Counted from the stretch's first letter, positions 2,779-35,586 are shown. The stretch: DNA of 35,586 nucleotides from a virus (IMGVR_UViG_3300033066_002009:72961-108546), one strand, 5' to 3'. Translations and numbers: made by a program. The notes: generated from the letters alone by a model not told the origin.

Positions 2779-3618
2779 TTAGTATAGTGATGGGGTCGTG
2801 TTTGGGTCTACCAGAATTCCGTACTCTGCCGCACTCCGTGTAATCAGCGAGCACGCCAGTTTCTGGTGAACCATCACTGATTTTAAGGTTGTTGACGAAA
2901 CGGTTTTTACAAACCAGCGCTCATTTTGTCTAAGGTCAACAAGGACATCACCATACTCTAGGTGTGGATAGTCCATGACCGTAAACGCTGTAACCTTCAT
3001 GTCGGATTCACCGTGCCCCGTAACTTGAGTTTGAACGGGTGCAGGCTCTTCACGGCCTCTAATCGAAATTGGCGGCCAGAAACCACCAACAAACGTAGTT
3101 CCAAAACAACTTTCGCAATGTTCCAATGTCCCGTCTTTTGTTGTCGGGTCCCAGCAAACAGGGCAGCGGGTACCCCATCGCATTTTTTTCAGGACAACTA
3201 ATTCAATTCCGTTGAGTACTTTTAGGCCAGTGCCCAGGTCTCGTAGCATTTTCCGCTTAAGGAGGCGGGTGCGCATGTCGAGACCCGGCTCGATCGCGCG
3301 AGCAGGGCTTACCACGACTGCGCTTGAAGGCAGTATTGCGGTTACTCGATAATAAACTTGACGGCTTAACGCGAACAGATTGGTACCTTCTTTTACCGAC
3401 GCCAAGTCTGTCACGGCTGGGCTGTTGAAGTCGTTGTCTAGATAGTTGTAGGCGTTCGTTAAACCGGAAGCTACGGTTTCCCAATCACCGTCAGGGGCTC
3501 CCGCACGTTCCACCGTTACAGTGATGGAGCCGGATTCATCGCTTACGATGTCCCATTGAACAAAAACGGCGTCAGGGTAAAGCGCCGTCGTTCGCGTGAT
3601 TTCTACCGACGTGCTCAT
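2779..3618 (-). CDS. Hypothetical structural protein with a CxxC-x12-CxxC zinc-ribbon (279 aa)
   Basis: Contains RCPVCWDPTTKDGTLEHCESC. Overlaps both neighbours by 4 nt, which fits operon coupling. Confidence 0.6.
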   Translation of the reverse strand: MSTSVEITRTTALYPDAVFVQWDIVSDESGSITVTVERAGAPDGDWETVASGLTNAYNYLDNDFNSPAVTDLASVKEGTNLFALSRQVYYRVTAILPSSAVVVSPARAIEPGLDMRTRLLKRKMLRDLGTGLKVLNGIELVVLKKMRWGTRCPVCWDPTTKDGTLEHCESCFGTTFVGGFWPPISIRGREEPAPVQTQVTGHGESDMKVTAFTVMDYPHLEYGDVLVDLRQNERWFVKTVSSTTLKSVMVHQKLACSLITRSAAEYGILVDPNTTPSLY

Positions 3619-5356: not shown

Positions 5357-5641
5357 CTATCCAAAGTTCTGTTCACTATAACCGCCAGCCAATCCTGGGG
5401 CTAGATGATCGATGTCTGAAAGATTCCAAAGGTCATCGACAGCGCCCTTGGCCTTTGCTTGAGCGGCCGGGTCTGTCGGGCTCATTGACGGCCTTCCAGC
5501 GTACGGAATCAACGCCGTTCCACTGGAAAGTGTATCACCCGGCGGCTGGACGCCATGGCGGGCACCGAGCACGGCGTCAGCCATTTTATAGCGTACCAGA
5601 GCTGTCATAGCCCCTGTATTATAGGCTTGATTGAGCGTCAT
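5357..5641 (-). CDS. Small protein with the shared N-terminal motif (94 aa)
   Basis: N-terminus is MTLNQAYNTGAMTALVRYKMADAV. ATGA overlap with the upstream gene. Confidence 0.5.
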   Translation of the reverse strand: MTLNQAYNTGAMTALVRYKMADAVLGARHGVQPPGDTLSSGTALIPYAGRPSMSPTDPAAQAKAKGAVDDLWNLSDIDHLAPGLAGGYSEQNFG

Positions 5642-6108
5642 CGATTGAACCTTGCAACGCTACGATATCCGGATCCGAGACTGTTGTACGCCGCTTCCAT
5701 GTTGTTCTGCGTCTTGATCCCGCGTACCAGCTCATCCCATTCTTCCTTGAGAAGGCGGGCAAGCTGGGCATACGCCGCTTGCTTGTCATCAATACCGATT
5801 GGCGCAATGTCTCCATCTTGATACGTCGCTTGGTTCCGGATCTGAAGGAACGTTTCCGACATCATCAAGAATCGACAAGTCCCAAGTAGGAGGACGTACT
5901 TGTTTGGAAACGTGGAGGCTGTAAAGCGCGTCTGAGGCGTAACGGCGTTGAACGCTTCCGCGGCCATCTCTGCCGCGAGGTTTAGCTCGCTGTCGGTGAA
6001 TTGAACGTTCGCCAGGAGGATGTTGTTCTCCGCCTTGTCACGGAGAAACATGCGCACTTGGTCATTGGTAACGACAACTGGAGTCGTTGGAGTGCCGGTG
6101 ACAGGCAT
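5638..6108 (-). CDS. Hypothetical protein (156 aa)
   Basis: ORF in the operon, overlap-coupled to both neighbours. Confidence 0.55.
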   Translation of the reverse strand: MPVTGTPTTPVVVTNDQVRMFLRDKAENNILLANVQFTDSELNLAAEMAAEAFNAVTPQTRFTASTFPNKYVLLLGTCRFLMMSETFLQIRNQATYQDGDIAPIGIDDKQAAYAQLARLLKEEWDELVRGIKTQNNMEAAYNSLGSGYRSVARFNR

Positions 6109-8340: not shown

Positions 8341-8364
8341 TCCACCGTAATTATAGACTAGCCA

Positions 8365-8685: not shown

Positions 8686-8696
8686 GTTTAGCTCCT

Positions 8697-8725
8697 TTGC
8701 GGCATCTTATCACTTTTCATATTAG
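8697..8725 (+). promoter_or_regulatory. Sigma70-like promoter candidate for the opposite-strand cassette: TTGCGG, 17-nt spacer, TATTAG
   Basis: Read directly: -35-like box at 8697-8702 and -10-like box at 8720-8725. The fit to consensus is imperfect. Confidence 0.3.
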
Positions 8726-8747
8726 GTACAAGTATGTAGGAGGCCCC

Positions 8748-9122
8748 ATGCTGCCCGATTTCAACGAACTTGGAGTGTTCCAGAAGTTGCCTGCAGACGT
8801 GCAACATCAGATGGCCCTGATGTGGCGGGCATTCGAGCGGTCCCGCGGACCCGTCGTACGGTTCGTGATTGGGCATTATTTCAAGAAACATGTCTTCGCG
8901 GATGGAAGTAGATGCGCTGTTTGCGTCTGCCCGCCCCACAGGAACCCCGAGGACTGGGCGCAGCACCATGTCGACAGCTACTTCCTGGACCTGTTTGCGG
9001 AGCAGGACGACGGCATGTCCTCCTGCTTCGAGCAGTTCCCCTGGGAACACGCACAGTGGGAATATCGGAACCGAAGGTCGTTCGACGTCCACAAGACGGT
9101 GAGTGGTTGGACGACGTTTTGA
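8748..9122 (+). CDS. Opposite-strand accessory ORF, Cys/His-rich, function unknown (124 aa)
   Basis: Perfect SD AGGAGG lies 5 nt before the ATG at 8748. Contains CAVCVCPPH...HH. Ends 4 nt before the bidirectional terminator. This is the only rightward gene inside the leftward block. Confidence 0.55.
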   Translation: MLPDFNELGVFQKLPADVQHQMALMWRAFERSRGPVVRFVIGHYFKKHVFADGSRCAVCVCPPHRNPEDWAQHHVDSYFLDLFAEQDDGMSSCFEQFPWEHAQWEYRNRRSFDVHKTVSGWTTF

Positions 9123-9126
9123 ACAA

Positions 9127-9164
9127 GAAAAAGGGCGGCCCCGTGGAGGGCCGCCCTTTTTTTA
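9127..9164. terminator. Bidirectional rho-independent terminator
   Basis: AAAAA, then GGGCGGCC, then an 8-nt loop, then GGCCGCCC, then TTTTTTT. The 8-bp GC stem is perfect, with an A-run on one side and a T-run on the other. It terminates both the leftward capsid gene and the rightward cassette. Confidence 0.75.
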
Positions 9165-22411: not shown

Positions 22412-22492
22412 GTCGTATCTCCCGTTCAACCGCGGTTATGGTCGGTCAACGCGTTGCTGGAAATAATAGTCCAGTATCACGCGATGCACAAA

Positions 22493-22699
22493 TTATAGAA
22501 TAGGCTTCGCATTTGGGGCGATCGGAGCGCTCATAGCATGCACAGGATTCCCTGACGATCCTGCTGCGGCTCCTGGTGCCGGTGTCGGCCCCGCATTGAT
22601 GGATTTCATTGGAAATTGCCCTACGCCAATAGCAGCGCTTCCTAGTTTAAATCGAGCAATCTTGGCGTTCCAGCCGGTGATATACGCGTCTTGAATCAT
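22493..22699 (-). CDS. Small protein with the shared N-terminal motif (68 aa)
   Basis: N-terminus is MIQDAYITGWNAKIARFKLGSAA. TGATG overlap with the upstream gene. Confidence 0.45.
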   Translation of the reverse strand: MIQDAYITGWNAKIARFKLGSAAIGVGQFPMKSINAGPTPAPGAAAGSSGNPVHAMSAPIAPNAKPIL

Positions 22700-23346
22700 C
22701 AGTAAGAACTCACTTGGCCGTAGGGTTGATAAGGAATTTCTTCCTGGAGCGGCGCTTGCTGCGCCGCGAATTGTTCTTGAGCCAGTTGGGGCCGGGGCTT
22801 ACTGCCCAGGAGATGGCCAACACCGCGACCAAGGCGCTCTCCGGCTCCACCGCCAAAATGTGCTCCTACCATGCCCCCCATGCCGAACCCGACGAGGTTT
22901 CCGGCCTCCCGGCCTGCCGTGCTAAGAACATTCGTCATGGTGCCCTCGTTAGGGTCCCCTTGTCCGAGCGCCGCGCCACCAATTGCCATCGCAGGCAGCC
23001 CTACGCCTAGTCCCCGCCATAGCCATTTCCCTGCGCGTTGGTGGAGCTTGTCGGGTGGCATAAGTGACCCGTTAAGCATGTGCGGGGCGTTGTGGATCGT
23101 CGGCCATAGCGCTTCCCGTACAGCACCGCCGCGCCGGAATGCGTCGCCAGACACTAAATGAGAGATGCCTTCGGCCGGATTTCTCATGCGGCCGACCGCC
23201 ATGTTTATCCCGCCGTCCAAAAGCCCTTTCCCCCATCCCATAGCTTTTTGGCCAAGGGATGCCGCTGCCGCAGAGGGAGCGGCTGTCTTTACGCCATAGC
23301 GCGAAAGACTGCGGTTAAAAGAGGCGTTGTAAACGGTTTGTAGCAT
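22699..23346 (-). CDS. G/A-rich protein with the shared N-terminal motif (215 aa)
   Basis: N-terminus is MLQTVYNASFNRSLSRYGVKTAA. TAATG overlap with the beta'-C gene. Confidence 0.55.
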   Translation of the reverse strand: MLQTVYNASFNRSLSRYGVKTAAPSAAAASLGQKAMGWGKGLLDGGINMAVGRMRNPAEGISHLVSGDAFRRGGAVREALWPTIHNAPHMLNGSLMPPDKLHQRAGKWLWRGLGVGLPAMAIGGAALGQGDPNEGTMTNVLSTAGREAGNLVGFGMGGMVGAHFGGGAGERLGRGVGHLLGSKPRPQLAQEQFAAQQAPLQEEIPYQPYGQVSSY

Positions 23347-25151
23347 TAGTACGTTCCGGTAGGCCCTTCACCGAATTCTCCGCCAAACGCATATGCGGGA
23401 ACAGGGTTAGTTCCGTGAACCTTACTTGAATCAGAACGGTGAGCGCCCGCAAGAAGGCCCTCTCCGAGGAACCGGTGTGCGAGCCGCGCCATCCAGTCCG
23501 GATTTAGTAGCGGAGTGCGTTCAGCAGGGCGCATGAAGGGCTCTACAAGTGGCGCTTTGTGGGCAATGTGAACGCGCGTCACGTGATTCCGTTTTAAGTC
23601 GTCCTCAACGCTCTTAGTGATTCGGGTGCCCGCTGTGAAGTGGAGCACGTCATCCGCTAGGGTTTCCCCGAGAGCGTCCTCAAGTGGCAACTCTTTTCGC
23701 GAGCCGGCCAAGAACGTTTTATATTTATTGTAGTCGATGATGTCACCGCGCGTGAGCCCATTATCCTCGTCATCCCCTGTATCTACTACACGGACGTGGT
23801 TCAGAATCGATTTAGCCATTGTTTCAAAGTGGCGCTTGTCGATCTCAATTCCCTGGCTTTTGTAGATGTTGAACATTGCATCGGTGAGGTACTTGCGGCC
23901 CGCACCAAGGCCTTTGTATTGAACTACTTCATTTGGGCGAGGGATTCCATCGGAAAGGGCGTCACCGGACTCTACTTTCTGCCCCATTGATACAACGACA
24001 TCTAGGCTTGGCTCGATATAGTGTCTCTCACTGTCAACCCAAACGTAGTGTCCGCCTTGCGGTGCGGTTTCAATCTTCGTTACGGTTCCGTCGTGGAAGG
24101 CCAAGGCCGCCGCATGAAGAAATGACTTCGGAATCTGAAGCATCTGCTCCACACCCTTAACGCCTTCAACGGTCTTTTCTTTTTTAAGCTTGGCAAGATC
24201 CTTCGCGTGCTTGGCGCCTAGTGCGAACTGCGTCAAGGGTTCCGCCATGGACTGCGCGGCTCGGACACCAATATTGGTACCAATCGCGTGCAGGCGACCA
24301 TACGGATCTAGCCCTTCGCACTTCTGACAAAGGCCGTCATTCATCTCACATGTCATTGGCGAGCGAACGATCACGTCACCGCCAAGTGCTTTCAATTCAG
24401 AGGCAATATGTGGAGTAACCATGGTGCCCGCTTTGACGGTTCCCTTGTCATGTGCGGTGTACCGGTCGATGATGTGCGGGTCGTCCGTGTGCATCGCAAG
24501 GCCGTTGCGTGTCCCGCAATCGTTTTGGACGATCAACTTGTCAGCCATGTTGTTGACCAGGATCTTTCCGAGGTCTCCCGGTTCCGAGACGGCTGTTCGC
24601 GTCTTAATTTCGTTTACTCGAGCCTCTGTCATGGCGGCCCACGCCTCTGAAGGGCGAAGACCCTCCGCATAGCTTCGAATAATCGGCCACGGAATAACTT
24701 GGTCTTTGTCGCCAGACGCGAGTACGGGAGCAGCAACACTTCGCATCAACTGCGGAAAATTTCCTCGGCCGCCGGATCGGGCCATCTCACCCATCGAGCC
24801 TGGATGGCGCTTTGTCAACTCAATCATCGGGGCGAGGCCTTTGATCAAAGCCTGTTGCTTGTCGACTACAGACTTTGCCTTATGAAAATCCGCTAGAATT
24901 GGCTTCATAATGGCGTCACGCTGCTCATACATTGGCGTGATGTCATCGATACCCACAGAGATCCCCTCCAACGTGGAGATTTCGTCGCCTAGGCGCTTGA
25001 GGGAAGAGACGATCCCTGGGTACTCATCAGGCTTGGTTCGGGCCAAGTCGACAAGGATGTCCCGCATGCGGCCCTTCGTCAGGGGGCCCTTCCCGTCATA
25101 TTCTTTTGGGAGAACGTCGTAGACAAGGCGCTCCCCGAGAGAAGTCGCCAT
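23346..25151 (-). CDS. RNA polymerase beta' subunit, C-terminal half (rpoC2/A''-like split subunit, 601 aa)
   Basis: The segment RSPMTCEMNDGLCQKCEG...HAIGTNIGVRAAQSMAEPLTQFALGAKH matches the bacterial beta' region around the trigger loop (VRSxxTCE..GxCxKCYG..GxxxGxIAAQSIGEPGTQ). Confidence 0.85.
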   Translation of the reverse strand: MATSLGERLVYDVLPKEYDGKGPLTKGRMRDILVDLARTKPDEYPGIVSSLKRLGDEISTLEGISVGIDDITPMYEQRDAIMKPILADFHKAKSVVDKQQALIKGLAPMIELTKRHPGSMGEMARSGGRGNFPQLMRSVAAPVLASGDKDQVIPWPIIRSYAEGLRPSEAWAAMTEARVNEIKTRTAVSEPGDLGKILVNNMADKLIVQNDCGTRNGLAMHTDDPHIIDRYTAHDKGTVKAGTMVTPHIASELKALGGDVIVRSPMTCEMNDGLCQKCEGLDPYGRLHAIGTNIGVRAAQSMAEPLTQFALGAKHAKDLAKLKKEKTVEGVKGVEQMLQIPKSFLHAAALAFHDGTVTKIETAPQGGHYVWVDSERHYIEPSLDVVVSMGQKVESGDALSDGIPRPNEVVQYKGLGAGRKYLTDAMFNIYKSQGIEIDKRHFETMAKSILNHVRVVDTGDDEDNGLTRGDIIDYNKYKTFLAGSRKELPLEDALGETLADDVLHFTAGTRITKSVEDDLKRNHVTRVHIAHKAPLVEPFMRPAERTPLLNPDWMARLAHRFLGEGLLAGAHRSDSSKVHGTNPVPAYAFGGEFGEGPTGTY

Positions 25152-25540: not shown

Positions 25541-25965
25541 TAGAACACAGCTCCATTGGATGCGCCGCCTGCCGGATTTCCTAGGACGTCTCCAGAGTTT
25601 CCGGCGGCAGGGTGGGTAGCAGGGCCCCATGACGTTGAGCGGTCAAGGGGATCTTTCTTCGCGCTTGGGTCGATAGTTCCTGGCGGCTGGGGCAGCGACT
25701 GAAGAAACGCGGCCAACGCTTCCGCTGGAAGGTGATCGTCTGCCTGTGGCTCTAACGGAGCGAGCCCATGTTCCGCGCTCTTTCCGGCACCTTTTTCAGA
25801 GACGTTCCGTAGGGTTCCGTCCATCCCATGGAATCCGCGAAATGGCCGAATCTTCAGACGGACTTCGTCTGACGCCGCAGTCTTTACCCCAAAACGGGAA
25901 AGAGCAGCCCACGCCGCAACCTTGTAGATGTGGGTGATGGAGCAATTATTTGGCATGTACGGCAC
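25540..25965 (-). CDS. Small protein with the shared N-terminal motif (141 aa)
   Basis: Carries ...ITHIYKVAAWAALSRFGVKTAA. It lies 8 nt downstream of the RNAP fusion gene. Confidence 0.5.
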   Translation of the reverse strand: MPYMPNNCSITHIYKVAAWAALSRFGVKTAASDEVRLKIRPFRGFHGMDGTLRNVSEKGAGKSAEHGLAPLEPQADDHLPAEALAAFLQSLPQPPGTIDPSAKKDPLDRSTSWGPATHPAAGNSGDVLGNPAGGASNGAVF

Positions 25966-25972
25966 GTTCTAA

Positions 25973-28900
25973 TTATAGTTCGCTCTTCTTGTTAATGTCG
26001 ATCGGGTCGGAGAGGTTGATTTCTCCTCGGTGGTACGCCGCAAGAGCATGGCCCTGTGATTCAAAGCTCTTTGAAGCCATGGTGCCCGCAGGCTGTGTTG
26101 CACGGTGAAGCCCGATAACTGCTTCCATGTCGGGGGCCACGTTAAGTGGGTCTGACTTCTTCTCGCTAAAAATAAGCTTTGATAGCGTCATGTTCTTGAC
26201 GTCTTCAATGCCCTTGAGGGTTACAGGCGCGTGCACTTGAATTGCGTCACCATCGTAGTCCGCGTTCATCCCGCGCTCTGCGAACGGATTCAGGCGAATG
26301 GTCTTGCCCGACGTCAACTTGGGATACGCGCCAATTACTCCGAACCGATGTAGTGTAGGCGCGCGGTTAACGACGACCGGGCGCTCTTTCGTTTCGATCA
26401 GAAGCTCTTCTCGCGCCAAGGGGTTCTTTTCCTCGACCATGCGCTGTGCGTCAAGAGCAGGGTAGCCCTTCCGTACAAGACGCCCGATCAAGAACTTAGA
26501 GTACATCTTCCAGAGCATGTCCTCCGGGATTCCGATCTCATCCATGTCTAGTGTCGGGTCTGGGGCGATCGTTGCGCGCCCCGATACGTCCTGTTGCCGC
26601 ATCATAATTTTCGACTGGAAGAACCCGTTCTTTGGCCGAGTACCGTTAATCTGCATCAAGAAGCCTTGAGCGTTTCGCTTCTTCGCTTTGGGGCTCTGCG
26701 GCTCTTCCGTTCCAAACACGGACCCAACGGCCTTGTAGACGTGCATACGAATTGGTGCTAGCTCTGTGTTAGGCAGTCCAGCTTCGTCTAGTTCTTGAAG
26801 CTTCTTATTCGCCAAGAAGGCGTCTGTGTAGAGCAGATTCACGGGCTGTGTCAGTAGTCGCCCATCCTTCAGGGGCACAATCTGCCGCATGATAGGCGGG
26901 ATTACCGGAACCTTACTGAGGATGTACGCCTTATCAGGCGTTAACCCTTGGGACTTTAGCGCCGTCAGATACTTGATCTGCTTTACGGCACTGTCGAGGC
27001 TAGGGCCTTTCAACGTCTTACTCTGAGCCTTCAGCTCTTCGATTTTCTTGTCCATGTCGATTTTAGACAAGGCGTCTTTGAAATAAGCCCCTCCCTGCTG
27101 GGAATGGAAATCCTCGAATTGCCGCTGTGTTAGGCTCAATAGACGCCGAACAGGCTCCTCAAATACCGGGTTGACGATCGGCTCGTGAAGCTGCATGTGT
27201 GCCCACTTCGTCCCGGTCAAACCTCCGGTCAATACCGGGTCGAAGAGACCGCCCTTTTCAGGCATCAGGTTTTTAGCCTTGATGTGGTAGGCATTTTCTA
27301 CAGGACCAGATGACATCTTTTCAATGTCAGCGTCCGTCATCGGTCCCAGCGTCAACCGTTGACCGTCTTTGTTCACTTTGACGCCGGCACCTTCCAGCAT
27401 TGTCAGGAATTTGTCATACGCGAATGTCGTTTTAGGCGACGGCACCGGCAGCCCCAGCTGAATAGCTCGCCAGAATTCGTCGTTCTTTTGGCTCTTAATT
27501 GACGCGGCTTCCCGCAAAACGTTTCTCGCGTTGTGTGCGACAAGTGCATCAAACTCCATCTTACCGATGCCCTTCGCACCCTCGTCGCCGCCTCGGCTAG
27601 GTTGCTGGTTAATGTCGTATTTTTCGGGACCGTGCGCAGACCAGTTAGTGTAGGCGCTCTTGAACAGCTTAAGAATGTAAGAACGGCCCACGAATACACC
27701 GGGGATGCTTTTCCCCGTAATCGGGTCGTAGACTGTCTCCTTGTCCTTAAGGCCGTGTTCCTTGAGCAGCCCCTTTACCCATTTCACATTGTCGCGGTCT
27801 TCAAAATTATCGATGGCGATAGGCTTGCCGGTTTTTTCTGCAACCTTGCCCAGTGCCGCTTCGAGAACCTGCGCCGGGTTTACACGGCTAATGATGCCGG
27901 CAGAGGTGAAGAGCACGTCAATGGGATTGCCCTTTTCATCCTTCACCATCTGCGCGTCAGGTACGATTTTTGCGATTACTCCCTTGTTGCCGAAGCGTCC
28001 TGAGAGCTTGTCACCGACATTGATGGTTTCCCATGTCTTAACCGTTACGGAGATGACGTGAGGCGTCTTGACCACGTCAATTACTTCTCCAGGTGTTTCA
28101 TGGTGCCAGTCTTCAACCTCTTCCCTGTAAGGCGTCACAAGAGAGCGCGACAGCTTACCGAGCAACGCCGCGTCTCCGGTGATCTGGCCTTTCCGCGCAG
28201 CCACAATAACGGGGTCACCGGGCTCGATCTTTGTTCCCGGCTTAACAACGCCTTCGGAGTCCAGATTGTCATACTGACGAGCCTTGTAGCGCATTCCGAA
28301 GTACGTACGGTGAAGCTCTTTGTCGTTTAGGATGTCGTTATCCCGCCGCATATCAATACGATACATGTGCTCGGAAACGAGTTTATCTGCAGCACCTTGT
28401 GAAACGACAATTCCGTCGTTGGAGTTAAGCCCCCGATAGGCCATATATCCAACGGACATATTCTTGCCGAGGCACAGGGTATCGTTCTTGGTGAAGTTAG
28501 ACTCCGCCAGGGGTTGACCCGCTTTTACATCTTCACCCGCCCGCACCTTGATGGTGTTGTGCAGGTAGGTCTTCGCGGCGAGCGGGAAGTGGTCGTCATA
28601 GTGGAGCTTGATCAGCCCGCTATCCGCCGCTGCATATTTATCTACGTGATCGTTGTAGAACCACTCCCCGTCTCGATCGGAAGATGCCTTCGTGGCTTTC
28701 GGACGGATGTAAATCCAGTCATCGTCAATTCGCTCGATAGTCCCGTCCACTGGAGATGTAGGCACCACCTTTAGCGCCATTTCCTGCTCTACCGTGGTCC
28801 CCGGCCACCAGGACTTGACCTGTACGTGCGGGGGCTCCCGGTGAACCAGCGGCAGCGCCTGCGACTGGTGCTTGGAAGCCATGACGATGCGGTTACCCTG

Positions 28901-30445
28901 CATGCCGTTGAGGAACGGCAAGAGGTTCGTCGTTGGGCCGAAGAGATTGGCTACATGGGGAACCTGATAGTCAACTTCATGCGGGCCGACGTCTACGATC
29001 TCTCCGTCTTTCATCGCGTGAACAACAGGGAGGCCCGGGGCGCCATTTCCGACCTTTTCCGTCGGAAAAGCCACTACTTTTTCAGCGACCTCGTTTGGCC
29101 GCAAGTATTCAATTTCACCGGTCTTCACGTTTCGAAGAGGGGTGTATAGATTTCCCTTATCGTCTCGCCGGGTTGCCAATGCAGTTCGAATATCGATGCC
29201 CGTCTTGAAGCTCTCTGGCGTTCTTGACGGATCCATGATTGCGAAGTGCGTAGGGTGCAGCTGCCGCGCTTCCATTGGAACGGCACGCTCACTTGAAATA
29301 CCGCCCTCACCCATGGGAGTGACCTTGCACATCTGGTCCATCAATTCCATGGGGTTGATCTGCTCGGGCTTCTGAGCACGCTTTGAAGTAGACAGGAACG
29401 TGATTACTCCGCGCGTAAACGGCGAGGCTGGTACTGCCTTTCTCATGTCACCACGAGACGCCTCCAGCTTAATGCCGATCTTCGTCTTCAGGGCCTTGGC
29501 ATCGAGGCCAATACGCTCTTTGATAGAGTCGTCTACACCGTGGAAGGTCTTGAACTCGAGGCTATCTCTATCGTCAGTGTCGATGGCATTACGGTGAACA
29601 TCTAGCAATTTCTTGGCCGCGATCAATAAAGCCATCGGTGTAACGTGGTCAAACGCCTGCCCCAACGTGCGCTTCGTGACGTCGGGGTCCATCCGCGTCA
29701 TTTCATAGTAACGATGAAGCTGCCGAACGCGTTCTTCGTGAGTAGCAGCAGGGGCTGCACCTGCCGGCTGAATCCAGTAACCCAGCTTGTCGTACAGTTT
29801 TTGTACGTGGCGCTCCGTATTTTTTTCCGTTGCTACCTTATTTACGTCAGCCACCTGGCTACCCCACTGAGTAGAAATGTCTTGGTGGGGGACGCCAAGC
29901 GCCCGCAACACAGGGTACAACGGGATCTTTGTAGTCTTGTGTTCCAGCCGCAGCACGCCCTCTTCCGGATCCATTGCAATTCGGAAGTTGTCACCGCGCG
30001 CCAGGTTGAACGCCGCTTCTAGATCTTCATTGCCGCGCTTTCGTGTGTAGACGCCCGGCTTTGTACGAATCTGATTTGCGATGTTGTATTCGTTGCCGTC
30101 AATGATGAACGTATGCCGCGGTGTAAAGTACGGCAGGTGCATCAAGGTAAAGTTCTTTGCCTGCGATACAACAGCGCCCTGTGTGTCCTTTACGAGGATG
30201 TCTCCGACCACACGTTCGTGGAGCGTCCGAGCTTCAAGGATTGCGCGCTTTTGGTCGCGGGACGAAAACGACTCCTCCTGGACGCGCGGGTTCGTCAATT
30301 CCACCGTGAAGTTTCTCGACTTCATAGGGAAAGCAGCTTGTACGCCCTCTAGGGCCTTGCGTCGGATGTGCGCTCGGTGGTCTGTGGCGTCCATAAGGAC
30401 TGGTCGGATGCCGGCGGACTCCGCGTCACGTTCTGAAATTGGCAT
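25973..30445 (-). CDS. Fused RNA polymerase subunit (1490 aa): a beta-like N-terminal ~950 aa joined to the N-terminal ~540 aa of beta'
   Basis: Beta-like motifs are FIIDGNEYNIANQIRTKPGVY and GRFGNKGVIAKIVPD...NPAQVLEAALGK. Beta'-N motifs are AHMQLHEPIVNPVF, VPVIPPIMRQIVPLKDGR, GRATIAPDP, NRAPTLHRFGV and NADYDGDAIQVHAPV. The beta' N-terminal zinc-finger cysteines are not visible. Confidence 0.9.
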   Translation of the reverse strand: MPISERDAESAGIRPVLMDATDHRAHIRRKALEGVQAAFPMKSRNFTVELTNPRVQEESFSSRDQKRAILEARTLHERVVGDILVKDTQGAVVSQAKNFTLMHLPYFTPRHTFIIDGNEYNIANQIRTKPGVYTRKRGNEDLEAAFNLARGDNFRIAMDPEEGVLRLEHKTTKIPLYPVLRALGVPHQDISTQWGSQVADVNKVATEKNTERHVQKLYDKLGYWIQPAGAAPAATHEERVRQLHRYYEMTRMDPDVTKRTLGQAFDHVTPMALLIAAKKLLDVHRNAIDTDDRDSLEFKTFHGVDDSIKERIGLDAKALKTKIGIKLEASRGDMRKAVPASPFTRGVITFLSTSKRAQKPEQINPMELMDQMCKVTPMGEGGISSERAVPMEARQLHPTHFAIMDPSRTPESFKTGIDIRTALATRRDDKGNLYTPLRNVKTGEIEYLRPNEVAEKVVAFPTEKVGNGAPGLPVVHAMKDGEIVDVGPHEVDYQVPHVANLFGPTTNLLPFLNGMQGNRIVMASKHQSQALPLVHREPPHVQVKSWWPGTTVEQEMALKVVPTSPVDGTIERIDDDWIYIRPKATKASSDRDGEWFYNDHVDKYAAADSGLIKLHYDDHFPLAAKTYLHNTIKVRAGEDVKAGQPLAESNFTKNDTLCLGKNMSVGYMAYRGLNSNDGIVVSQGAADKLVSEHMYRIDMRRDNDILNDKELHRTYFGMRYKARQYDNLDSEGVVKPGTKIEPGDPVIVAARKGQITGDAALLGKLSRSLVTPYREEVEDWHHETPGEVIDVVKTPHVISVTVKTWETINVGDKLSGRFGNKGVIAKIVPDAQMVKDEKGNPIDVLFTSAGIISRVNPAQVLEAALGKVAEKTGKPIAIDNFEDRDNVKWVKGLLKEHGLKDKETVYDPITGKSIPGVFVGRSYILKLFKSAYTNWSAHGPEKYDINQQPSRGGDEGAKGIGKMEFDALVAHNARNVLREAASIKSQKNDEFWRAIQLGLPVPSPKTTFAYDKFLTMLEGAGVKVNKDGQRLTLGPMTDADIEKMSSGPVENAYHIKAKNLMPEKGGLFDPVLTGGLTGTKWAHMQLHEPIVNPVFEEPVRRLLSLTQRQFEDFHSQQGGAYFKDALSKIDMDKKIEELKAQSKTLKGPSLDSAVKQIKYLTALKSQGLTPDKAYILSKVPVIPPIMRQIVPLKDGRLLTQPVNLLYTDAFLANKKLQELDEAGLPNTELAPIRMHVYKAVGSVFGTEEPQSPKAKKRNAQGFLMQINGTRPKNGFFQSKIMMRQQDVSGRATIAPDPTLDMDEIGIPEDMLWKMYSKFLIGRLVRKGYPALDAQRMVEEKNPLAREELLIETKERPVVVNRAPTLHRFGVIGAYPKLTSGKTIRLNPFAERGMNADYDGDAIQVHAPVTLKGIEDVKNMTLSKLIFSEKKSDPLNVAPDMEAVIGLHRATQPAGTMASKSFESQGHALAAYHRGEINLSDPIDINKKSEL

Positions 30446-30465
30446 GCGTAAGTAATAACACGTAG

Positions 30466-30480
30466 TTGGTAAAAGAGAAT
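30466..30480 (+). promoter_or_regulatory. Promoter-like motif copy A: TTGGTAAAAGAGAAT
   Basis: One of four plus-strand copies of GGTAAAAGA, all intergenic. It lies 21 nt from the divergent RNAP start codon. Confidence 0.45.
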
Positions 30481-30885
30481 GGAGTCGTCGCTGTCGTGCA
30501 CGCTACACCTGTCTTTCACTCGAGGTAAACCCTCGAGGGACGTGGTGGCGGCCGGCGGGGAACAGGAGGTGCGCCTTAGGAAGGTTTGACGGTGCGCCGC
30601 CACTCCTGGGATTGCTGATCCCAGGAGGGCGGTGAGCGGAATGAATCTCGGCCCCTTCCGCGGCCTGTAGTCCACCGTCAGGAGGGGCGTTAAGACGGAC
30701 CGAGAGCGCCCATGAAAACTGAACGCGAACAACAGGCCCCTCAGGGAGGGGTCAAGAGGGCACCGCGAAGATGGTGCCCAGGGCCAACAGCGCCCTCGCC
30801 TTGTGCAGCACAGGGGTCCATCCCAAAACACCCAAGCGGCCCCCTAGAGGGCTCAGACCCACGGCTAGGTCAGGGCCGCTTTTTT
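30481..30885 (+). ncRNA. Candidate structured non-coding RNA of about 400 nt, class unknown
   Basis: Bracketed by motif A and an intrinsic terminator. Perfect hairpins include CTCGAGG/CCTCGAG, CTCCTGGGA/TCCCAGGAG and GGGCACC/GGTGCCC. Stops occur in all frames, and the only 59-codon ORF has poor codon usage and no properly spaced SD. Confidence 0.4.
30835..30885 (+). terminator. Rho-independent terminator on the plus strand
   Basis: AGCGGCCC and GGGCCGCT form an 8-bp stem with an inner CCTAG/CTAGG pairing, followed by TTTTTT. Confidence 0.6.
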
Positions 30886-30898
30886 GGGTAAAAGAGGG
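30884..30898 (+). promoter_or_regulatory. Promoter-like motif copy B: TTGGGTAAAAGAGGG
   Basis: Lies immediately after the terminator and 24 nt before the SD/ATG of a small TM-protein gene. Confidence 0.45.
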
Positions 30899-30918
30899 AA
30901 ACTACATGGAGGCCACCC

Positions 30919-31074
30919 ATGCGCGTGCAGCTCTGGAAGAAGAAACCACAGCACCCGGCTGTTTCGCTGATCACGAGCTTCCTGCTGCTGGCAGCGGTGC
31001 TCGTGATCGCGAAAGAAGTGGGGGAGACCCTTCGACATGCGCTTGATGTCTGGTCCGAAGAGGAGCAGCAGTGA
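30919..31074 (+). CDS. Small single-pass membrane protein (51 aa)
   Basis: Found by hand translation: MRVQLWKKKPQHPAVSLITSFLLLAAVLVIAKEVGETLRHALDVWSEEEQQ. SD GGAGG lies 6 nt upstream. GTGA overlap with the next gene. Its frame and start differ from the track ORF 30771-31046. Confidence 0.5.
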   Translation: MRVQLWKKKPQHPAVSLITSFLLLAAVLVIAKEVGETLRHALDVWSEEEQQ

Positions 31075-31385
31075 TCTCCGCGGCCTCCAAGGAGATCCTC
31101 CTCAACGGAGCGGTATCGGGCGCCCTGGCCGTGCTCACAAGCAGGCCGGGGGACGGCCGGAAGGGCTACAAGAAAGGGCGCGCAACGGGAGTAATTATGG
31201 GGGTCGCAGGAACCCTGGTTCTCTTCGGCGTGCTGCGGTACGTCGCCCTCAACACCCAGATCGGACAGAAGGTTGTTCGCGCGGTTCAGCGGGAGCGGGA
31301 GATATACCGCGAGTTTCGCGCCGAATGGCTCCGGGAAGCACGTCTCCGTGAGGTTCTTCTCCAGGAGGAGACCGAGGCGGCGTGA
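31071..31385 (+). CDS. Small membrane protein with two predicted TM helices and a charged C-terminus (104 aa)
   Basis: GTG start with SD GAGGAG. Hydrophobic segments are LLNGAVSGALAVLTS and GVIMGVAGTLVLFGVLRYVAL. GC3 is very high. Confidence 0.6.
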   Translation: MISAASKEILLNGAVSGALAVLTSRPGDGRKGYKKGRATGVIMGVAGTLVLFGVLRYVALNTQIGQKVVRAVQREREIYREFRAEWLREARLREVLLQEETEAA

Positions 31386-31406
31386 CCCGCCGTTCACCTG
31401 CTAGAG

Positions 31407-31441
31407 GCACTCCGCGGTGGGGAGGGGGAGTGCTTCTTTTT
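31407..31441. terminator. Intrinsic terminator between convergent genes
   Basis: GCACTCC, a 12-nt loop, GGAGTGC, then TTCTTTTTA. The T-tract is on the plus strand. Confidence 0.6.
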
Positions 31442-31865
31442 AGCGTCGACGTCCCCTTGGTGGGGCATCTGCATCGCGCTCTTCTTCTGCCAGCCGGGCT
31501 TCTCGTTCAGGATTTCTACGCCGGGTCAGCCATGTTAGGAGGATTCGATACTCTCCCGTGAGGGGTGTGAAGCTCCTTTCTTCCGCCCGAGGCAGCGCGT
31601 CTCCTCGAAGGCACTGGTCCTGAACAGCGTTGTAAGCCTCTTCATCACCCGGCAAGGTGAACACCTGACAGTGGTGTGAATAGTCCCATTCAACAGGTGT
31701 TGCCTTGCCTTCGACGTCCATGTCTACAAGACGGTGATTCCCGAGTGGCGGTTGGCCCCCTGTGCCAAAGGCGCTTCCAGCGTCGGCTCCTCGCGCGCCG
31801 CTGAAAAGATTTGGCATGCTGTTGACCTTCTCGAGCAGCTCAGTGAAGGATTCGTCCTTTGCCAT
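31440..31865 (-). CDS. Hypothetical protein (141 aa)
   Basis: AAGGA SD upstream of the ATG. Ordinary codon usage. Confidence 0.5.
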   Translation of the reverse strand: MAKDESFTELLEKVNSMPNLFSGARGADAGSAFGTGGQPPLGNHRLVDMDVEGKATPVEWDYSHHCQVFTLPGDEEAYNAVQDQCLRGDALPRAEERSFTPLTGEYRILLTWLTRRRNPEREARLAEEERDADAPPRGRRR

Positions 31866-31884
31866 CTTTATGAGTCCTTATCCA

Positions 31885-33684
31885 TTACATCGGGCCCGCA
31901 GCCGCAGGTGCTGCACCAGCTTCCCCGCCACCGCCAGTAGGGTCACCACTCATTTCACTTCGCCCCGCTGTCAGAGCCGCGTGGTTTTGTTGCGTCTGCA
32001 TATCCTTCATTCGATCAACAACAACGGCATACATTACCTTGTCCTCGACTTCAAGAGCGTGCAGCTGCGATTGCCTTGACCCGGGATCGAGGCCCATCAT
32101 TTGCTGAACGATGCCATCGGCTTGACCGATAACGGCTTGCTGGTCGTATTGAAGGGTGTTCTGTCCCATGGCCGCTTGCGCTTGTACGCGTTGTGCAAGC
32201 GTGTTCTGCAATTTAGCAGTTTCCACCTGAAGCTCTTGCTGGAAACGAACTTCATCGAGAGCCTCTTGCTTACGCTTCTCCCGCTCTTCCTGCAAATCAA
32301 TATCAAAGGTATCGGCGATTGTGGTGTTTGAAACAAACGGTCCGGTCGGGCTTGTCTGATTAAGCTGCAGCAACAAGGTCTTCTGCTGAACGTCGTCGAT
32401 GAACTTGAACGGCGCCAAGTCGACTTCGACCTCACCCCATCCCAGCAGTCGGCCAACTTTGTCAGTAATCCACTGAAGCATTTCCACAAGTTCGCTCGTG
32501 TGGGGCAGAAGCTGGTTCTCAAGGATACGCAATGTGATGGCGGACCCGGTGAAAGACAGCCCGCCATAGAGGAACTCCTTAGGAATTCCCAGAGCCGCAA
32601 TGATATTGTCCTCGGCCATCTGGATTTCCTGCTGCACCATCAGGGCCCGAGCTTGACCGCCGAGATGCGTAACCTCTGTGGGGATTGGAGACCACATCAT
32701 GTGCAACGGGTCTCGACGCCACTTCTTGACGTTCTGCTTCATTTCGCTAGCCCAGCGCTCTAGCGAAATGGAGATGACAGGATCACCGTTAGGGTTCCCC
32801 TGCTTCGGTGAGATAATTCGGAATGGCACGACATAGTCAAGGCCAATAGCCTCGTTGGCCTTACGCAACACAGCAACATAGAAGAAGAGCTTAATTGTAG
32901 AGGCGAGTGGCGGGAATCCCCACTGCGCTTCGATGCCGGCGGGAGCATCCATCTTCAGGTGGAAGATCTGGCCCTCGGCAAACTCGAAGGTCTTGTCGTC
33001 CTTGATGGTCTTTAGAAACTCAACAGGAAGGGTGTTAATGAGGTGCTTGTTGCCCTTATTGATGCGTTCCTTCATTTCCTTCGGAACGGTGTAGTAGTAA
33101 ATGCTGTGTCCCGTCACCGGATTGTAATCAATATCCATCAGCTTCGGATCCCATCGGATAATGGCGACCTTGTCAGGGCGAACCAGGGGACGGTCAATAA
33201 TGTCCGCATCCGTGCTGATTGTTTCCCGTGTACAGGCTGGACACCGATACCGGAATTCCATCTTTTTCAACTTGAACTTGTAATCAAGTGTCGCAATGTT
33301 GGCGAGGCTCTTGCAATCACCGCATCGCAGGAATCGCACGAACGGTGAATAGATGGAATAGAAGCCGTTTCCGTATACAAACTTGTCGATAGCTGCGCGA
33401 ATAAGATGGCGCTTCGTTTTCAGGCGTTTGTCGTGAAGAGTCTTGTAGCGGTCCTTCAGCGCCTCATTAGTCGTTGTGTAGACGATGTTGGTCACTGGGT
33501 AGATCGCAAACTTCTGCAACGCCGCGTAAATCTGTGACGAGTTGAAGTACAGGTACTCGCACAAACGGAATAGGTCTTTAAGCTTTCTCGGCGCGAACGC
33601 AGTTAGAAAGTCAAAAAGGGGAGAGCCGTGAGATGTTGAGTTGCGACCCATAAGGTCGCCAAGTTCAGGATCGAATTCAGACAT
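31885..33684 (-). CDS. Large protein with a CxxC-x25-CxxC zinc ribbon and a Q/A-rich coiled-coil tail (599 aa). A portal-like role is possible but unproven.
   Basis: Contains RCGDCKS...YRCPACTRE. No Walker A motif, so it is not a large terminase. It is an isolated leftward unit among rightward early genes. Confidence 0.55.
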   Translation of the reverse strand: MSEFDPELGDLMGRNSTSHGSPLFDFLTAFAPRKLKDLFRLCEYLYFNSSQIYAALQKFAIYPVTNIVYTTTNEALKDRYKTLHDKRLKTKRHLIRAAIDKFVYGNGFYSIYSPFVRFLRCGDCKSLANIATLDYKFKLKKMEFRYRCPACTRETISTDADIIDRPLVRPDKVAIIRWDPKLMDIDYNPVTGHSIYYYTVPKEMKERINKGNKHLINTLPVEFLKTIKDDKTFEFAEGQIFHLKMDAPAGIEAQWGFPPLASTIKLFFYVAVLRKANEAIGLDYVVPFRIISPKQGNPNGDPVISISLERWASEMKQNVKKWRRDPLHMMWSPIPTEVTHLGGQARALMVQQEIQMAEDNIIAALGIPKEFLYGGLSFTGSAITLRILENQLLPHTSELVEMLQWITDKVGRLLGWGEVEVDLAPFKFIDDVQQKTLLLQLNQTSPTGPFVSNTTIADTFDIDLQEEREKRKQEALDEVRFQQELQVETAKLQNTLAQRVQAQAAMGQNTLQYDQQAVIGQADGIVQQMMGLDPGSRQSQLHALEVEDKVMYAVVVDRMKDMQTQQNHAALTAGRSEMSGDPTGGGGEAGAAPAAAGPM

Positions 33685-33711
33685 GCGGCGACGTTAGCAT
33701 AGTCTTTAAGC

Positions 33712-33727
33712 TTTGGTAAAAGAGAAT
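33712..33727 (+). promoter_or_regulatory. Promoter-like motif copy C: TTTGGTAAAAGAGAAT
   Basis: Lies 28 nt upstream of the ATG of a rightward gene with SD AGGAGGG. Confidence 0.5.
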
Positions 33728-33752
33728 AGACAGCCGTGTAGGAGGGCAATTG

Positions 33753-34085
33753 ATGGTTGAAGTCGCGTTACGTGAAGCTGCTGAGGCTCTCGCTGATGCG
33801 AGGCAACCTGAAGTGCTGCGGCGCGTGTTGGGCTTTACGGGCTGGCACCCGAGGAGGGTGCGGTTCATAGACCACCACGATGGTTGCGATATACGCCGCG
33901 TACTCGCAACCTATACTCGGCTCTCCGTGGAGTACAAGCGCCGAACGAAAGGCAACCGCTCACGGGAATGGCTTCGGCGCGTTTACGAGCCGTACACCAC
34001 GTGTCAACTCGGCGAAGTATTGCAGAAGTTCCGAGAGGGGCTGGAAACCACCCGCTGTACCTGCACGATCAACCAGGAGGAGTGA
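33753..34085 (+). CDS. Small basic protein, possibly a DNA-binding/regulatory protein (110 aa)
   Basis: SD AGGAGGG. R/K-rich, with HPRRVRFIDHHDGCD...CTCTIN. Confidence 0.65.
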   Translation: MVEVALREAAEALADARQPEVLRRVLGFTGWHPRRVRFIDHHDGCDIRRVLATYTRLSVEYKRRTKGNRSREWLRRVYEPYTTCQLGEVLQKFREGLETTRCTCTINQEE

Positions 34086-34462
34086 TGTCCACGGATATTG
34101 CGAAGGAAGTTGCAGAGATGCTCGCTGCGCGGAGCGGTGAGGTCAAGAGGCGCGTCATCGAAAGCCTCGCCGAGGAGGAGCTGTCCTTCCGTGTGAAGCT
34201 CGTGCGTACGGGTCTCGACAAGCTGAGGGAGCTGAAGAGGGCCCTCGACAAGATCCGGCCCGACAACGTGAGCTACAACGGCGATGGGACACTCCACAAC
34301 GAGCTGTGGAGCAAGCCCAAGCTCGAGGAGAAGAAGAAGGCCACCGAGTCCTACGGCAAGCTCGACGCGGCGCTCGCCAAGGCGCTCGACGACAAGCCCG
34401 ACTACGAGCCGCTCAAGAAGCTGATCGGCAACGCCGGCAAGGAAGAGCCGCAGGCGGAATAG
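34084..34462 (+). CDS. Small helical charged protein, function unknown (126 aa)
   Basis: SD AGGAGGAG with a TGATG overlap. From codon ~15 onward, nearly every codon ends in G/C, unlike its neighbours. Confidence 0.65.
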
Positions 34463-34472
34463 CCCCGGATTC

Positions 34473-34486
34473 CGGGTAAAAGAATG
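34473..34486 (+). promoter_or_regulatory. Degenerate promoter-like motif copy D: GGGTAAAAGAATG
   Basis: Shares GGTAAAAGA but lacks the flanking TTGG and GAG. It lies directly upstream of the large hairpin. Confidence 0.3.
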
Positions 34487-34488
34487 TG

Positions 34489-34573
34489 CACGCCCACCCC
34501 CTTGATCGTACGCGTCTGCTCGACGAGGCTGGCCCGTGTGAGGGGGTGGGTGTGCTCTTCTTTTGGTGTTTAT
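34489..34573 (+). terminator. Long hairpin plus U-rich tract, read as an intrinsic terminator or attenuator
   Basis: CACGCCCACCCCCT and AGGGGGTGGGTGTG form a 14-bp stem with one G.U pair and a 38-nt loop, followed by CTCTTCTTTTGGTGTTTAT. It sits between the upstream operon and the SNF2 gene. Confidence 0.5.
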
Positions 34574-34597
34574 CCGGTAGACAAAGGAGGCGTTTCC

Positions 34598-34621
34598 ATG
34601 GTAAACGCGAAGAACTGATGG
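34598..34621 (+). CDS. Six-codon upstream ORF (MVNAKN) that overlaps the SNF2 start as TGATG
   Basis: SD AAAGGAGG lies 6 nt before this ATG and 26 nt before the SNF2 ATG. That spacing suggests coupled re-initiation. Confidence 0.25.
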
Positions 34622-35586
34622 CCTCCACGATGATCGCCCGAATCGGGGCAGATAACAACGGTACCCCCGTGTTTATCGTCGGCGGGCAGTCAGTGGAGCT
34701 TGAACGACCCTTCGGGGCTACACCAGAGCTGGAAGCGGGCGTATGGAAGTACCCGGCGTACTTTCCGGTGGGACAGATGGTCCTAGACGACTTCAAGGCG
34801 CTGGGGCTCAATATCCAACTGTCTGACAAAGCGAAGGATTATGTAGAAAGCATGACACGGCAGGCTGACGCCTGCCGTACCCTTACACTCCCCGAAGGAT
34901 TTCGTTTTGCCACCACACCCTACCCACATCAGGTGGAAGGGCTCTGTCATGTGTTTTACAAGCTGCGTGCCGCGCTATTTTATGCGCCGGGTCTCGGAAA
35001 GTCCAAGATTGCTATCGACTTGATCCGGCTTCTAAGGCATGTTGGTCAACCCCACAGGACGCTCATTCTAGGCCCCCTTGTAACGATACGGAATTGGGGT
35101 GCGGAGATCGACCGGCACTCCGCAGGAGAGCTTACGTGGCGGGCCATGCTTGGCGACCCGGAAGACAAAATCGCCGAAGTGATGGATGCGTCGGAAAACC
35201 CACCGGACATCTTCTTGGTAACCTACGACACTGCTAAACGGTATGTAGAACTTCTGGCGGAAAAGTTGCCCTATTCAAACGTGATTGCGGACGAAAGCCA
35301 CTATATCAAAGAAGCTTCCGCCGCTCGTACTAAGACAGCCATCGCGCTTGGGACTAAGGCTCGCCGCAAGGTCATCATGACAGGTACTCCAACGCTTGGA
35401 GACCCTGGAGACCTTTACGGACAGTTTAAGTTCTTGGGACACTACTTCATGCCGGAATCGGCATTCAAGTTTAAGCAAGTATTCTATGAGATATCGCCTA
35501 CAAATCGTTACGCAGTGTTGGGCTACAAAAATCTCGGAGTATTGAACAGGCGCGTCCAGCGCATCAGTTTGCGGCGTACAAAAGAA
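34618..35586 (+). CDS. SNF2-family helicase/ATPase, N-terminal part only (the ORF continues past the window edge)
   Basis: Found by hand translation, with no stop up to position 35586. Motifs: HQVEGL...FYAPGLGKSKIAIDLI (Q/Walker A), IADESHYIKE (DExH) and MTGTPTLGDP (motif III). Confidence 0.85.
   Translation, partial: MASTMIARIGADNNGTPVFIVGGQSVELERPFGATPELEAGVWKYPAYFPVGQMVLDDFKALGLNIQLSDKAKDYVESMTRQADACRTLTLPEGFRFATTPYPHQVEGLCHVFYKLRAALFYAPGLGKSKIAIDLIRLLRHVGQPHRTLILGPLVTIRNWGAEIDRHSAGELTWRAMLGDPEDKIAEVMDASENPPDIFLVTYDTAKRYVELLAEKLPYSNVIADESHYIKEASAARTKTAIALGTKARRKVIMTGTPTLGDPGDLYGQFKFLGHYFMPESAFKFKQVFYEISPTNRYAVLGYKNLGVLNRRVQRISLRRTKE

Follow-up and report, generated by a model that had tools for sequence, protein, structure and literature searches.

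The motif GGTAnAAG, which recurs in a 35,586-nucleotide (nt) stretch of viral DNA (IMGVR_UViG_3300033066_002009:72961-108546, part of a 108.5-kilobase (kb) contig and called the window here), is probably the promoter core of a phage family, read by a phage-encoded sigma factor and probably used with the phage's own RNA polymerase (RNAP). The promoter would have two parts and be specific to the family, with the motif as the core of its -10 region. With the first G of the core counted as position 0, its proposed layout comprises tCnwAAnt at -22 to -15, a T-rich stretch at -5 to -1, GGTAnAAG and AA, and initiation would take place at a purine after a pyrimidine, 5-6 nt past the core. The factor reading it would belong to the sigma-70 family and would most likely act on the phage RNAP, which consists of a beta subunit fused to the N-terminal part of beta' (beta-beta'N) and a separate C-terminal part of beta' (beta'C). 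The promoter would drive non-structural genes, and in the window it would serve five short plus-strand units (a structured RNA, small open reading frames (ORFs) and an SNF2 helicase gene) that lie opposite the structural and RNAP block and would each be bounded by an intrinsic terminator. The placement, orientation, conservation, flanking signals and base specificity of the motif, together with the sigma genes of relatives, suggest its identity as a promoter, its transcription start, the sigma factor and core enzyme that would use it, and the timing of that use.

The 9-mer GGTAAAAGA occurs in the window on the plus strand at 30468, 30887, 33715 and 34475 (sites 1 to 4) and on the minus strand at 3389, i.e., five matches against 0.22 expected, a number that none of 100 shuffles reached. 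These values bear out a preliminary description of this DNA, which reported the four plus-strand copies with about 0.2 expected and a minus-strand near-match at about 3388 within a coding region. The same description treated the repeat TTGGTAAAAGAG as a 9-mer confined to four sites in the early region. To judge from the copies compared here, the conserved unit behind it is the 8-mer GGTAnAAG, in which the fifth base is free, and scanning the window for this form adds a fifth plus-strand copy, GGTACAAG at 8725, which lies outside the range then described and was overlooked; the non-coding placement holds for all. The 8-mer count is mildly above chance (six against 2.4 expected, about 2.5-fold, with at least six in 3 of 100 shuffles), and the significance of the motif comes from its placement and not from this count. 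All five plus-strand copies are located in non-coding DNA, which makes up about 3% of the window, each just upstream of a plus-strand unit, and all five head a unit that ends with a hairpin and U-run. These terminators are found at 30850-30884 (-14.5 kcal/mol), 31400-31441 (-23.3 kcal/mol), 34486-34564 and 9126-9163 (-30.9 kcal/mol, z-score -5.1, two-way). The predicted starts of the five units are near 8738, 30481, 30900, 33728 and 34488. The minus-strand copy is most likely a chance copy outside the promoter system.

Sites 1 and 3 contain the identical 15-mer TTGGTAAAAGAGAAT, site 2 reads TGGGTAAAAGAGGGA and site 4 reads CGGGTAAAAGAATGT, with only GGGTAAAAGA common to the latter two. Outside the motif, the DNA around the copies is unrelated between sites. 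An exact search for the 15-mer in viral contigs returned more than 120 single unrelated matches, which are attributable to chance and uninformative. Site 1 lies 22 nt from the ATG of the RNAP gene (30445, minus strand) and site 3 lies 30 nt from the ATG of a gene of 599 amino acids (aa) (33684, minus strand), in agreement with the distances given earlier. The distance from the core end to a downstream ATG is 24 nt (30919), 30 nt (33753), or 115 and 135 nt (34598 and 34618). The spacers that hold sites 1 and 3 are 35 and 68 nt long and stand beside divergent gene starts, and therefore leave little room for another promoter. Bidirectional control by the copies near these divergent starts, which the preliminary description also raised, is speculation.

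An alignment of 45 de-duplicated intergenic sites reveals the conserved flanks t(-22) C(-21) n w A(-18) A(-17) n T(-15) and a T-rich stretch from -5 to -1, while the core is followed by AA, then T at +12 and a purine at +13. In a stricter set of 36 sites, A occupies -18 in 24 (p = 9e-9), C occupies -21 in 22, T occupies +12 in 24, and a purine is present at +13 in 34. The pyrimidine-purine step is one base further in the cultured Salmonella phage Arash (T at +13 in 12 of 15 sites, purine at +14 in 15 of 15). Sigma-70-type promoters are laid out as a -35 element, about 17 base pairs (bp), a -10 element and a start 6-8 nt downstream. When TAnAAG is taken as the -10 hexamer, the upstream element falls at the -35 position with a 17-bp spacer and the purine falls at the expected start. 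The motif therefore agrees with sigma-70-type promoters in having another conserved element some 17 bp ahead of the hexamer, with a sequence unlike TTGACA. The earlier statement that the motif is unlike a sigma70 -10/-35 pair is correct for the sequence, which differs from the consensus, but not for the geometry, which is sigma-70-like.

The RNAP fusion of the window belongs to a family of 1741 proteins at E <= 1e-10, almost wholly metagenomic, on contigs of up to about 197 kb. A metagenome scan provided 77 loci, of which 44 are non-redundant with an RNAP at least 47% identical and a guanine-cytosine (GC) content of 44-68%. An exact GGTAnAAG is present within about 160 nt of the RNAP start and on the opposite strand in 38 of these 44 loci, and the relaxed pattern G[GT]TAn[AC]AG in 42, whereas no locus has a copy on the same strand there. 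By position, this RNAP-proximal copy is orthologous to site 1. Sites 1 and 2 are both kept in the closest relative, L121 (80% identical), the latter as GGGTATAAG. Over all loci, 46 of 122 copies fall in the 6.8% of the DNA that is outside ORFs of at least 100 aa, and 38 of 39 de-duplicated copies outside ORFs are on the strand opposite RNAP. The sequence downstream of the RNAP-proximal copy varies among structured RNA (in the window), a micro-ORF of 12-16 codons and antisense sequence, and its position is kept. That this copy gates expression of the RNAP gene is speculative. Copies located 3.4-5.6 kb from the RNAP gene were considered as orthologues of sites 3 and 4 and rejected, as they are SNF2 coding sequence (G-Y-K-N-L, A-V-K-E), and relative L144 has no exact motif copy upstream of its SNF2 gene. 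Megablast of 25900-35586 against a phage collection found no match, and a viral-contig scan with RNAP as a single protein query found no relative.

Among cultured phages, tblastn placed Salmonella phage Arash nearest (35% identity), together with the Vibrio phages D69, D148 and D181 (34%). In the 144.5 of 180.8 kb of Arash that were examined, the form GGTATAAG occurs 26 times, against about 0.65 per 50 kb expected by chance, and every copy points at the next annotated gene or transfer RNA (tRNA) gene. The distance to the gene start is 12-60 nt for 25 copies and 147 nt for one. One copy stands 12 nt before a tRNA gene, and the signal is therefore not translational. The analogue of site 3 is upstream of gp203c and divergent from the portal gene gp204, the analogue of site 4 is flanked by two helicase genes and precedes one of them, gp197c, by 33 nt, and another copy just precedes gp9-gp10, where gp10 is a sigma factor. 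In Arash, the copies serve genes for replication, nucleotide metabolism and tRNAs as well as small genes of unknown function, which are encoded opposite to the structural genes. In Vibrio phage D69, whose GC content is 44%, GTTATAAG-N4-ATGTA precedes at least six genes.

Sigma genes are found in the cultured members (gp10 and gp196 in Arash, VPHD69_0246 in D69), and in 19 relatives a gp196 homologue is encoded on the RNAP strand, about 7-10 kb upstream of the RNAP gene. The family sigmas score above the cut-offs of Pfam Sigma70_r2 and Sigma70_r4 and of the TIGR02937 superfamily. Their alignment with RpoS spans residues 56-324 of 331, and their closest solved structures are RpoS and SigA. The proposal of the preliminary description, a candidate promoter for the phage's RNAP or for a phage sigma-like factor, gains support from these genes and from the conserved position and strand in relatives, the flanks and the final G of the core. 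In Arash virions, mass spectrometry found RNAP beta as the most abundant protein and also detected beta' and the sigma factor Gp10 (PMC10585845), which would indirectly fit a virion-delivered holoenzyme, as would the location of the RNAP genes among the structural genes. An alternative is that the phage sigma reads the motif and redirects the host RNAP core instead of the phage RNAP, as phage sigmas of other systems do. The homologues are sigma-70-family proteins of the ordinary kind and most similar to RpoS, SigA and RpoH, jumbo phages with a sigma but no RNAP are thought to recruit the host core with it (PMC7824862), and sequence alone does not show which core the phage sigma binds. However, wherever the family has sigma genes it also has beta-beta' genes of its own, the Arash virion contains both RNAP subunits and a sigma, and the motif so often adjoins the RNAP gene, which makes a host core unlikely.

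Use of the motif by the host holoenzyme itself, as an unusual extended -10 promoter (TGnTAnAAG) for sigma-70 or sigma-A of the kind that serves the early genes of many phages, is still less probable. The overall geometry would suit such a factor, TAnAAG matches TATAAT at T-12, A-11, A-9 and A-8, the Arash form is TATAAG, and a T often precedes GG to give a TG step at -15/-14. The base specificity speaks against it. Sigma-70 reads the -10 element by flipping out A-11 and T-7 and needs T-7 (PMC7598289), whereas here T-12 and A-11 are invariant and the hexamer ends in G. When single-base variants were counted, every core position proved to be specific: Arash has GGTATAAG 26 times, GGTATAAT once, and each other variant at most six times. 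Among intergenic copies of the window clade on the strand opposite RNAP, the last core base is G in 45, T in one, A in two and C in one, so G exceeds T by 26:1 in Arash and 45:1 in this clade. A hexamer ending in G fails the housekeeping consensus and not necessarily that of an alternative sigma. The final G is fixed across phages of 44-68% GC, presumably with unrelated hosts, and therefore argues against a host housekeeping sigma. Moreover, the motif has no TTGACA-like -35 element, and a separate TATAAT-type motif exists on the other strand. The spacers of 30200-35586 contain no sigma-70 consensus promoter (TTGACA-N16-18-TATAAT, at least 9 of 12 positions); the two consensus-like sites in this region are both on the minus strand inside genes, with 1.9 expected by chance.

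It is very improbable that the motif is a regulator binding site, or an RNA-level processing or stability signal near gene starts, and not a promoter. Such readings are helped by the location of site 4 between a stop codon and a terminator and by relatives in which the RNAP-proximal copy has no downstream gene. Against them, the motif is asymmetric and strictly oriented to the next gene, the sequences downstream of it include a tRNA gene and a non-coding RNA besides ORFs, the element at the -35 position and the pyrimidine-purine step stand at fixed distances, and sites 1 and 3 have no upstream same-strand transcription on which an RNA signal could act. A chance repeat or functionless remnant of local duplication has a negligible probability, and despite the modest 8-mer count it is already refuted by the comparative data, namely the position and strand conserved in dozens of diverged genomes, besides the shuffles of the 9-mer and the unrelated surroundings of the copies.

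Several points weigh against a phage promoter read by a phage sigma. No sigma gene was found in the window by Pfam search of 24 ORFs, by a hidden Markov model of 14 family sigmas, or by tblastn and phmmer with Arash gp10, because the expected position is past the window's end at 35586; by gene order only, with the sigma genes of relatives about 8-9 kb from the RNAP gene, the sigma gene of the window's own phage would lie at about 38-40 kb in window coordinates. The preliminary description had held that loss of the motif in close relatives retaining the same genes would count against it, and such a loss is seen at one site, as L121 lacks site 3 and keeps the homologue of the 110-aa gene downstream. 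In L144-type and high-GC relatives, the RNAP-proximal copy sits in the short spacer before the RNAP ATG without a downstream gene of its own and points antisense into the 134-aa and portal genes. At site 4, transcription would begin on the opening base of a strong terminator hairpin, an odd arrangement if the promoter is productive. The upstream element is weak (0.4-0.7 bit per position) and takes another form in Arash than in the window clade. In addition, some conserved copies in relatives proved to be SNF2 coding sequence and were removed from the set, and the ORF mask of at least 100 aa used for the counts is crude; with ORFs from 50 aa upwards, 96% of the DNA was masked and real sites were wrongly classed.

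The coordinates of the putative promoters, their units and the RNAP genes are compiled in Table 1, where P1 to P4 correspond to sites 1 to 4 and P5 to the copy at 8725. A 9603-nt contig of another sequencing run, L200 (Logan SRR32380195), is 100% identical to window positions 25984-35586, and the phage of the window has therefore been sampled in a second sequencing run. The plus strand of the window carries a non-coding stretch, small ORFs and the SNF2 helicase gene.

Table 1. Putative promoters (P1 to P5), predicted transcription units and RNAP genes of the window.
Feature	Position	Strand	Description
P1 (putative promoter)	30446..30481	+	core GGTAAAAG at 30468-30475; upstream element GCGTAAGT at 30447-30454; predicted start T30480/G30481; abuts the opposite-strand RNAP start codon
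Predicted P1 product	30481..30884	+	about 400 nt, structured, apparently non-coding; ends in hairpin and U-run at 30850-30884
P2 (putative promoter)	30865..30900	+	core GGTAAAAG at 30887-30894, directly after the P1 terminator
Predicted P2 unit	30919..31385	+	51-aa membrane-type ORF 30919..31074; 104-aa ORF 31071..31385; L200 gene calls; terminator 31400-31441
P3 (putative promoter)	33693..33728	+	core GGTAAAAG at 33715-33722; predicted start near A33728; divergent from the 599-aa portal-like gene
Predicted P3 unit	33753..34462	+	110-aa ORF 33753..34085; 125-aa ORF 34085..34462
P4 (putative promoter)	34453..34488	+	core GGTAAAAG at 34475-34482; predicted start G34488, first base of the next hairpin
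Long hairpin followed by UCUUCUUUU	34486..34564	+	-44.9 kcal/mol, z-score -4.3
6-codon ORF and SNF2-family helicase gene	34598..35586	+	ORF 34598-34618; helicase from 34618, runs off the window
P5 (putative promoter)	8703..8738	+	core GGTACAAG at 8725-8732, then TATG, Shine-Dalgarno AGGAGG and ATG at 8748
Predicted P5 unit	8748..9163	+	124-aa cysteine-rich ORF 8748..9122; two-way terminator 9126-9163
Core copy GGTAAAAG, most likely by chance	3390..3397	-	inside ORF 2779..3618; without upstream T-rich stretch; no gene start downstream
Phage RNAP beta fused to N-terminal beta' (1490 aa)	25973..30445	-	Pfam Rpb2_6, Rpb2_2, Rpb2_3, Rpb1_1, Rpb1_2
Phage RNAP C-terminal beta' (601 aa)	23346..25151	-	Pfam Rpb1_5, E = 2.9e-18; PHROG 25354

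P1 product: The stretch 30481-30884 downstream of P1 is GC-rich, has no convincing ORF and is conserved only in L121. Its predicted fold has 82 pairs, of which 17 are compensatory in a comparison of two sequences only, and the closing helix begins at the predicted start of P1. A search of Rfam with this stretch gave no match at either threshold, and it is possibly a phage-encoded structured RNA of unassigned type. At the corresponding place, upstream of the RNAP gene on the opposite strand, at least eight relatives (L131, L134, L137, L140, L166, L172, L182 and L197) have a Shine-Dalgarno sequence after the RNAP-proximal promoter and then a hydrophobic micro-ORF that is 12-16 codons long (such as MIITFIEILILIL, MVITFIEILLWTL and MVIQIALILAALLLK), where the window has the structured RNA instead.

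P3 and P4 units: The 110-aa and 125-aa ORFs of the P3 unit gave no family match. The hairpin at 34486..34564 ends this unit and is also the first sequence that P4 would transcribe, and P4 may yield a short RNA, act as an attenuator before the SNF2 gene, or place a stabilising 5' hairpin on its transcript. The helicase is recognized by Pfam SNF2-rel_dom (E = 1.4e-21). The 6-codon ORF before it (MVNAKN) has its own Shine-Dalgarno sequence, and its terminal ATGA overlaps the SNF2 start codon; therefore, the SNF2 gene may be translationally coupled to it.

P5 unit: This unit is set backwards within the minus-strand structural block. Its 124-aa cysteine-rich ORF has no Pfam match and no family match, and the minus-strand ORF 8688..9092 that overlaps it is probably antisense noise and not a gene.

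Minus-strand block: Both RNAP genes lie within a long minus-strand block of tightly packed genes, and the 141-aa and 599-aa genes are next on the same strand. The 599-aa gene is probably the portal gene, by analogy with the gene order of Arash. A Shine-Dalgarno sequence is absent from both the RNAP gene and the portal-like gene of 599 aa (minus strand, 30446-30470 and 33685-33710), and exactly 6 nt before the ATG stand TATTAC at the RNAP gene (TAATAC in L121) and TAACGT at the 599-aa gene, which suggests leaderless mRNAs or mRNAs with a very short leader. The RNAP fusions of some relatives (P0017, P0022, P0029, P0036, P0075, P0104-P0116) are lengthened to 1570-2160 aa by inserted domains, which are a GNAT acetyltransferase (PF00583, PF13508), a LAGLIDADG-type element (PF14528) or PF18823. 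A second SNF2/Helicase_C protein of 494 aa is encoded at 6108-7592 on the minus strand within the structural block, and the helicase that Arash encodes beside its beta' gene is abundant in virions.

Second motif: A second promoter-like motif, TAGnCTATAAT, stands just upstream of minus-strand genes of the structural block at 2043-2053, 5618-5628, 8350-8360 and 22492-22502. The window has five matches against 0.51 expected, four of them on the minus strand. Two-mismatch matches are on the RNAP strand in 17 of 23 cases in relatives, or in 21 of 27 when the window's four are included. Arash (L199 and L201) carries CTAAAATA before plus-strand structural genes, and in some places this motif stands back to back with GGTATAAG in reverse complement. 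The TAGnCTATAAT and CTAAAATA motifs may form a late promoter class, which would match the two sigma genes of Arash.

Taken together, these elements allow a broader and tentative reading, which is somewhat doubtful as a whole. The family would be self-sufficient in bacterial-type transcription: the virion would deliver the beta-beta' fusion RNAP, and the phage would supply sigma-70-family factors of its own. GGTAnAAG would be read by one of these sigmas and should not be recognized by host sigma-70, the TAGnCTATAAT/CTAAAATA class would serve the structural strand, and the RNAP-proximal copy, kept in nearly all relatives regardless of the sequence that follows it, would delay the RNAP and structural genes by working as a head-on or antisense gate.

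Sigma-70 promoters: The proposed promoter resembles two-part sigma-70 promoters, including the extended -10 type, in that the TAnAAG hexamer has T and A at its first two positions, an element stands at the -35 position, a T-rich or TG stretch precedes the core, and a pyrimidine-purine step is found at the expected start; the family also encodes sigma-70-family proteins with regions 2 and 4. In contrast, the hexamer ends with G and not with the near-universal T-7, the GG directly upstream is invariant, tCnwAA occupies the -35 position in place of TTGACA, the sigma would come from the phage, and so probably would the core enzyme. GGGTA may be akin to the beginning of GGGTAT, the -10 element of group-3 factors such as sigma-B and sigma-F; the phage sigma is closest by sequence to RpoS, SigA and RpoH, not to SigB/F/G.

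Single-subunit phage RNAPs: The motif differs from T7-type promoters, as the RNAP is multisubunit and conservation covers an 8-nt core with weak flanks and not about 23 bp. No inverted repeat corresponding to an N4-type promoter hairpin (5-7 bp stem, 3-nt loop) was found in the motif or its immediate flanks.

SPO1 and T4: The sigma cascades of phages SPO1 (gp28 and gp33/34) and T4 (gp55) operate on the host core enzyme. The present family is similar in that a phage sigma would give a promoter class distinct from that of the host, with a possible second class on the structural strand. It would differ in the enzyme used, since the SPO1 and T4 sigmas use the host core.

In the literature searched, no description of the promoters of this family was found, and searches with the 8-mer gave only primers and unrelated sequences. 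A conserved and easily scanned core could serve to annotate transcription units and non-structural modules in hundreds of metagenomic contigs, and it opens the way to direct experiments with Arash and D69, two members that are in culture. The sigma to which it points would favour G at the end of the -10 element, which bears on how region 2 reads the flipped base and on the construction of orthogonal expression systems.

phiKZ and AR9: In jumbo phages with a multisubunit RNAP, early operons are preceded by an A/T-rich motif that is about 10 nt long, is centred near -10 and can be recognized bioinformatically (PMC7598289). The present motif is likewise short, conserved, near -10 and upstream of non-structural operons in a phage with a multisubunit RNAP; the RNAP genes are similarly placed among structural genes, and the Arash RNAP is in the virion. 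In contrast, phages of the phiKZ/AR9 type have beta and beta' each split and no sigma, whereas this family has the beta-beta'N fusion and sigma-70-family genes; the motif sequence is unrelated, and the genomes are about 110-197 kb as opposed to more than 200 kb. Group 1 jumbo phages, which have the multisubunit RNAP, carry no sigma homologue, and the jumbo phages that carry a sigma have no RNAP (PMC7824862). Unlike either of these groups, the family described here combines a multisubunit RNAP with sigma factors.

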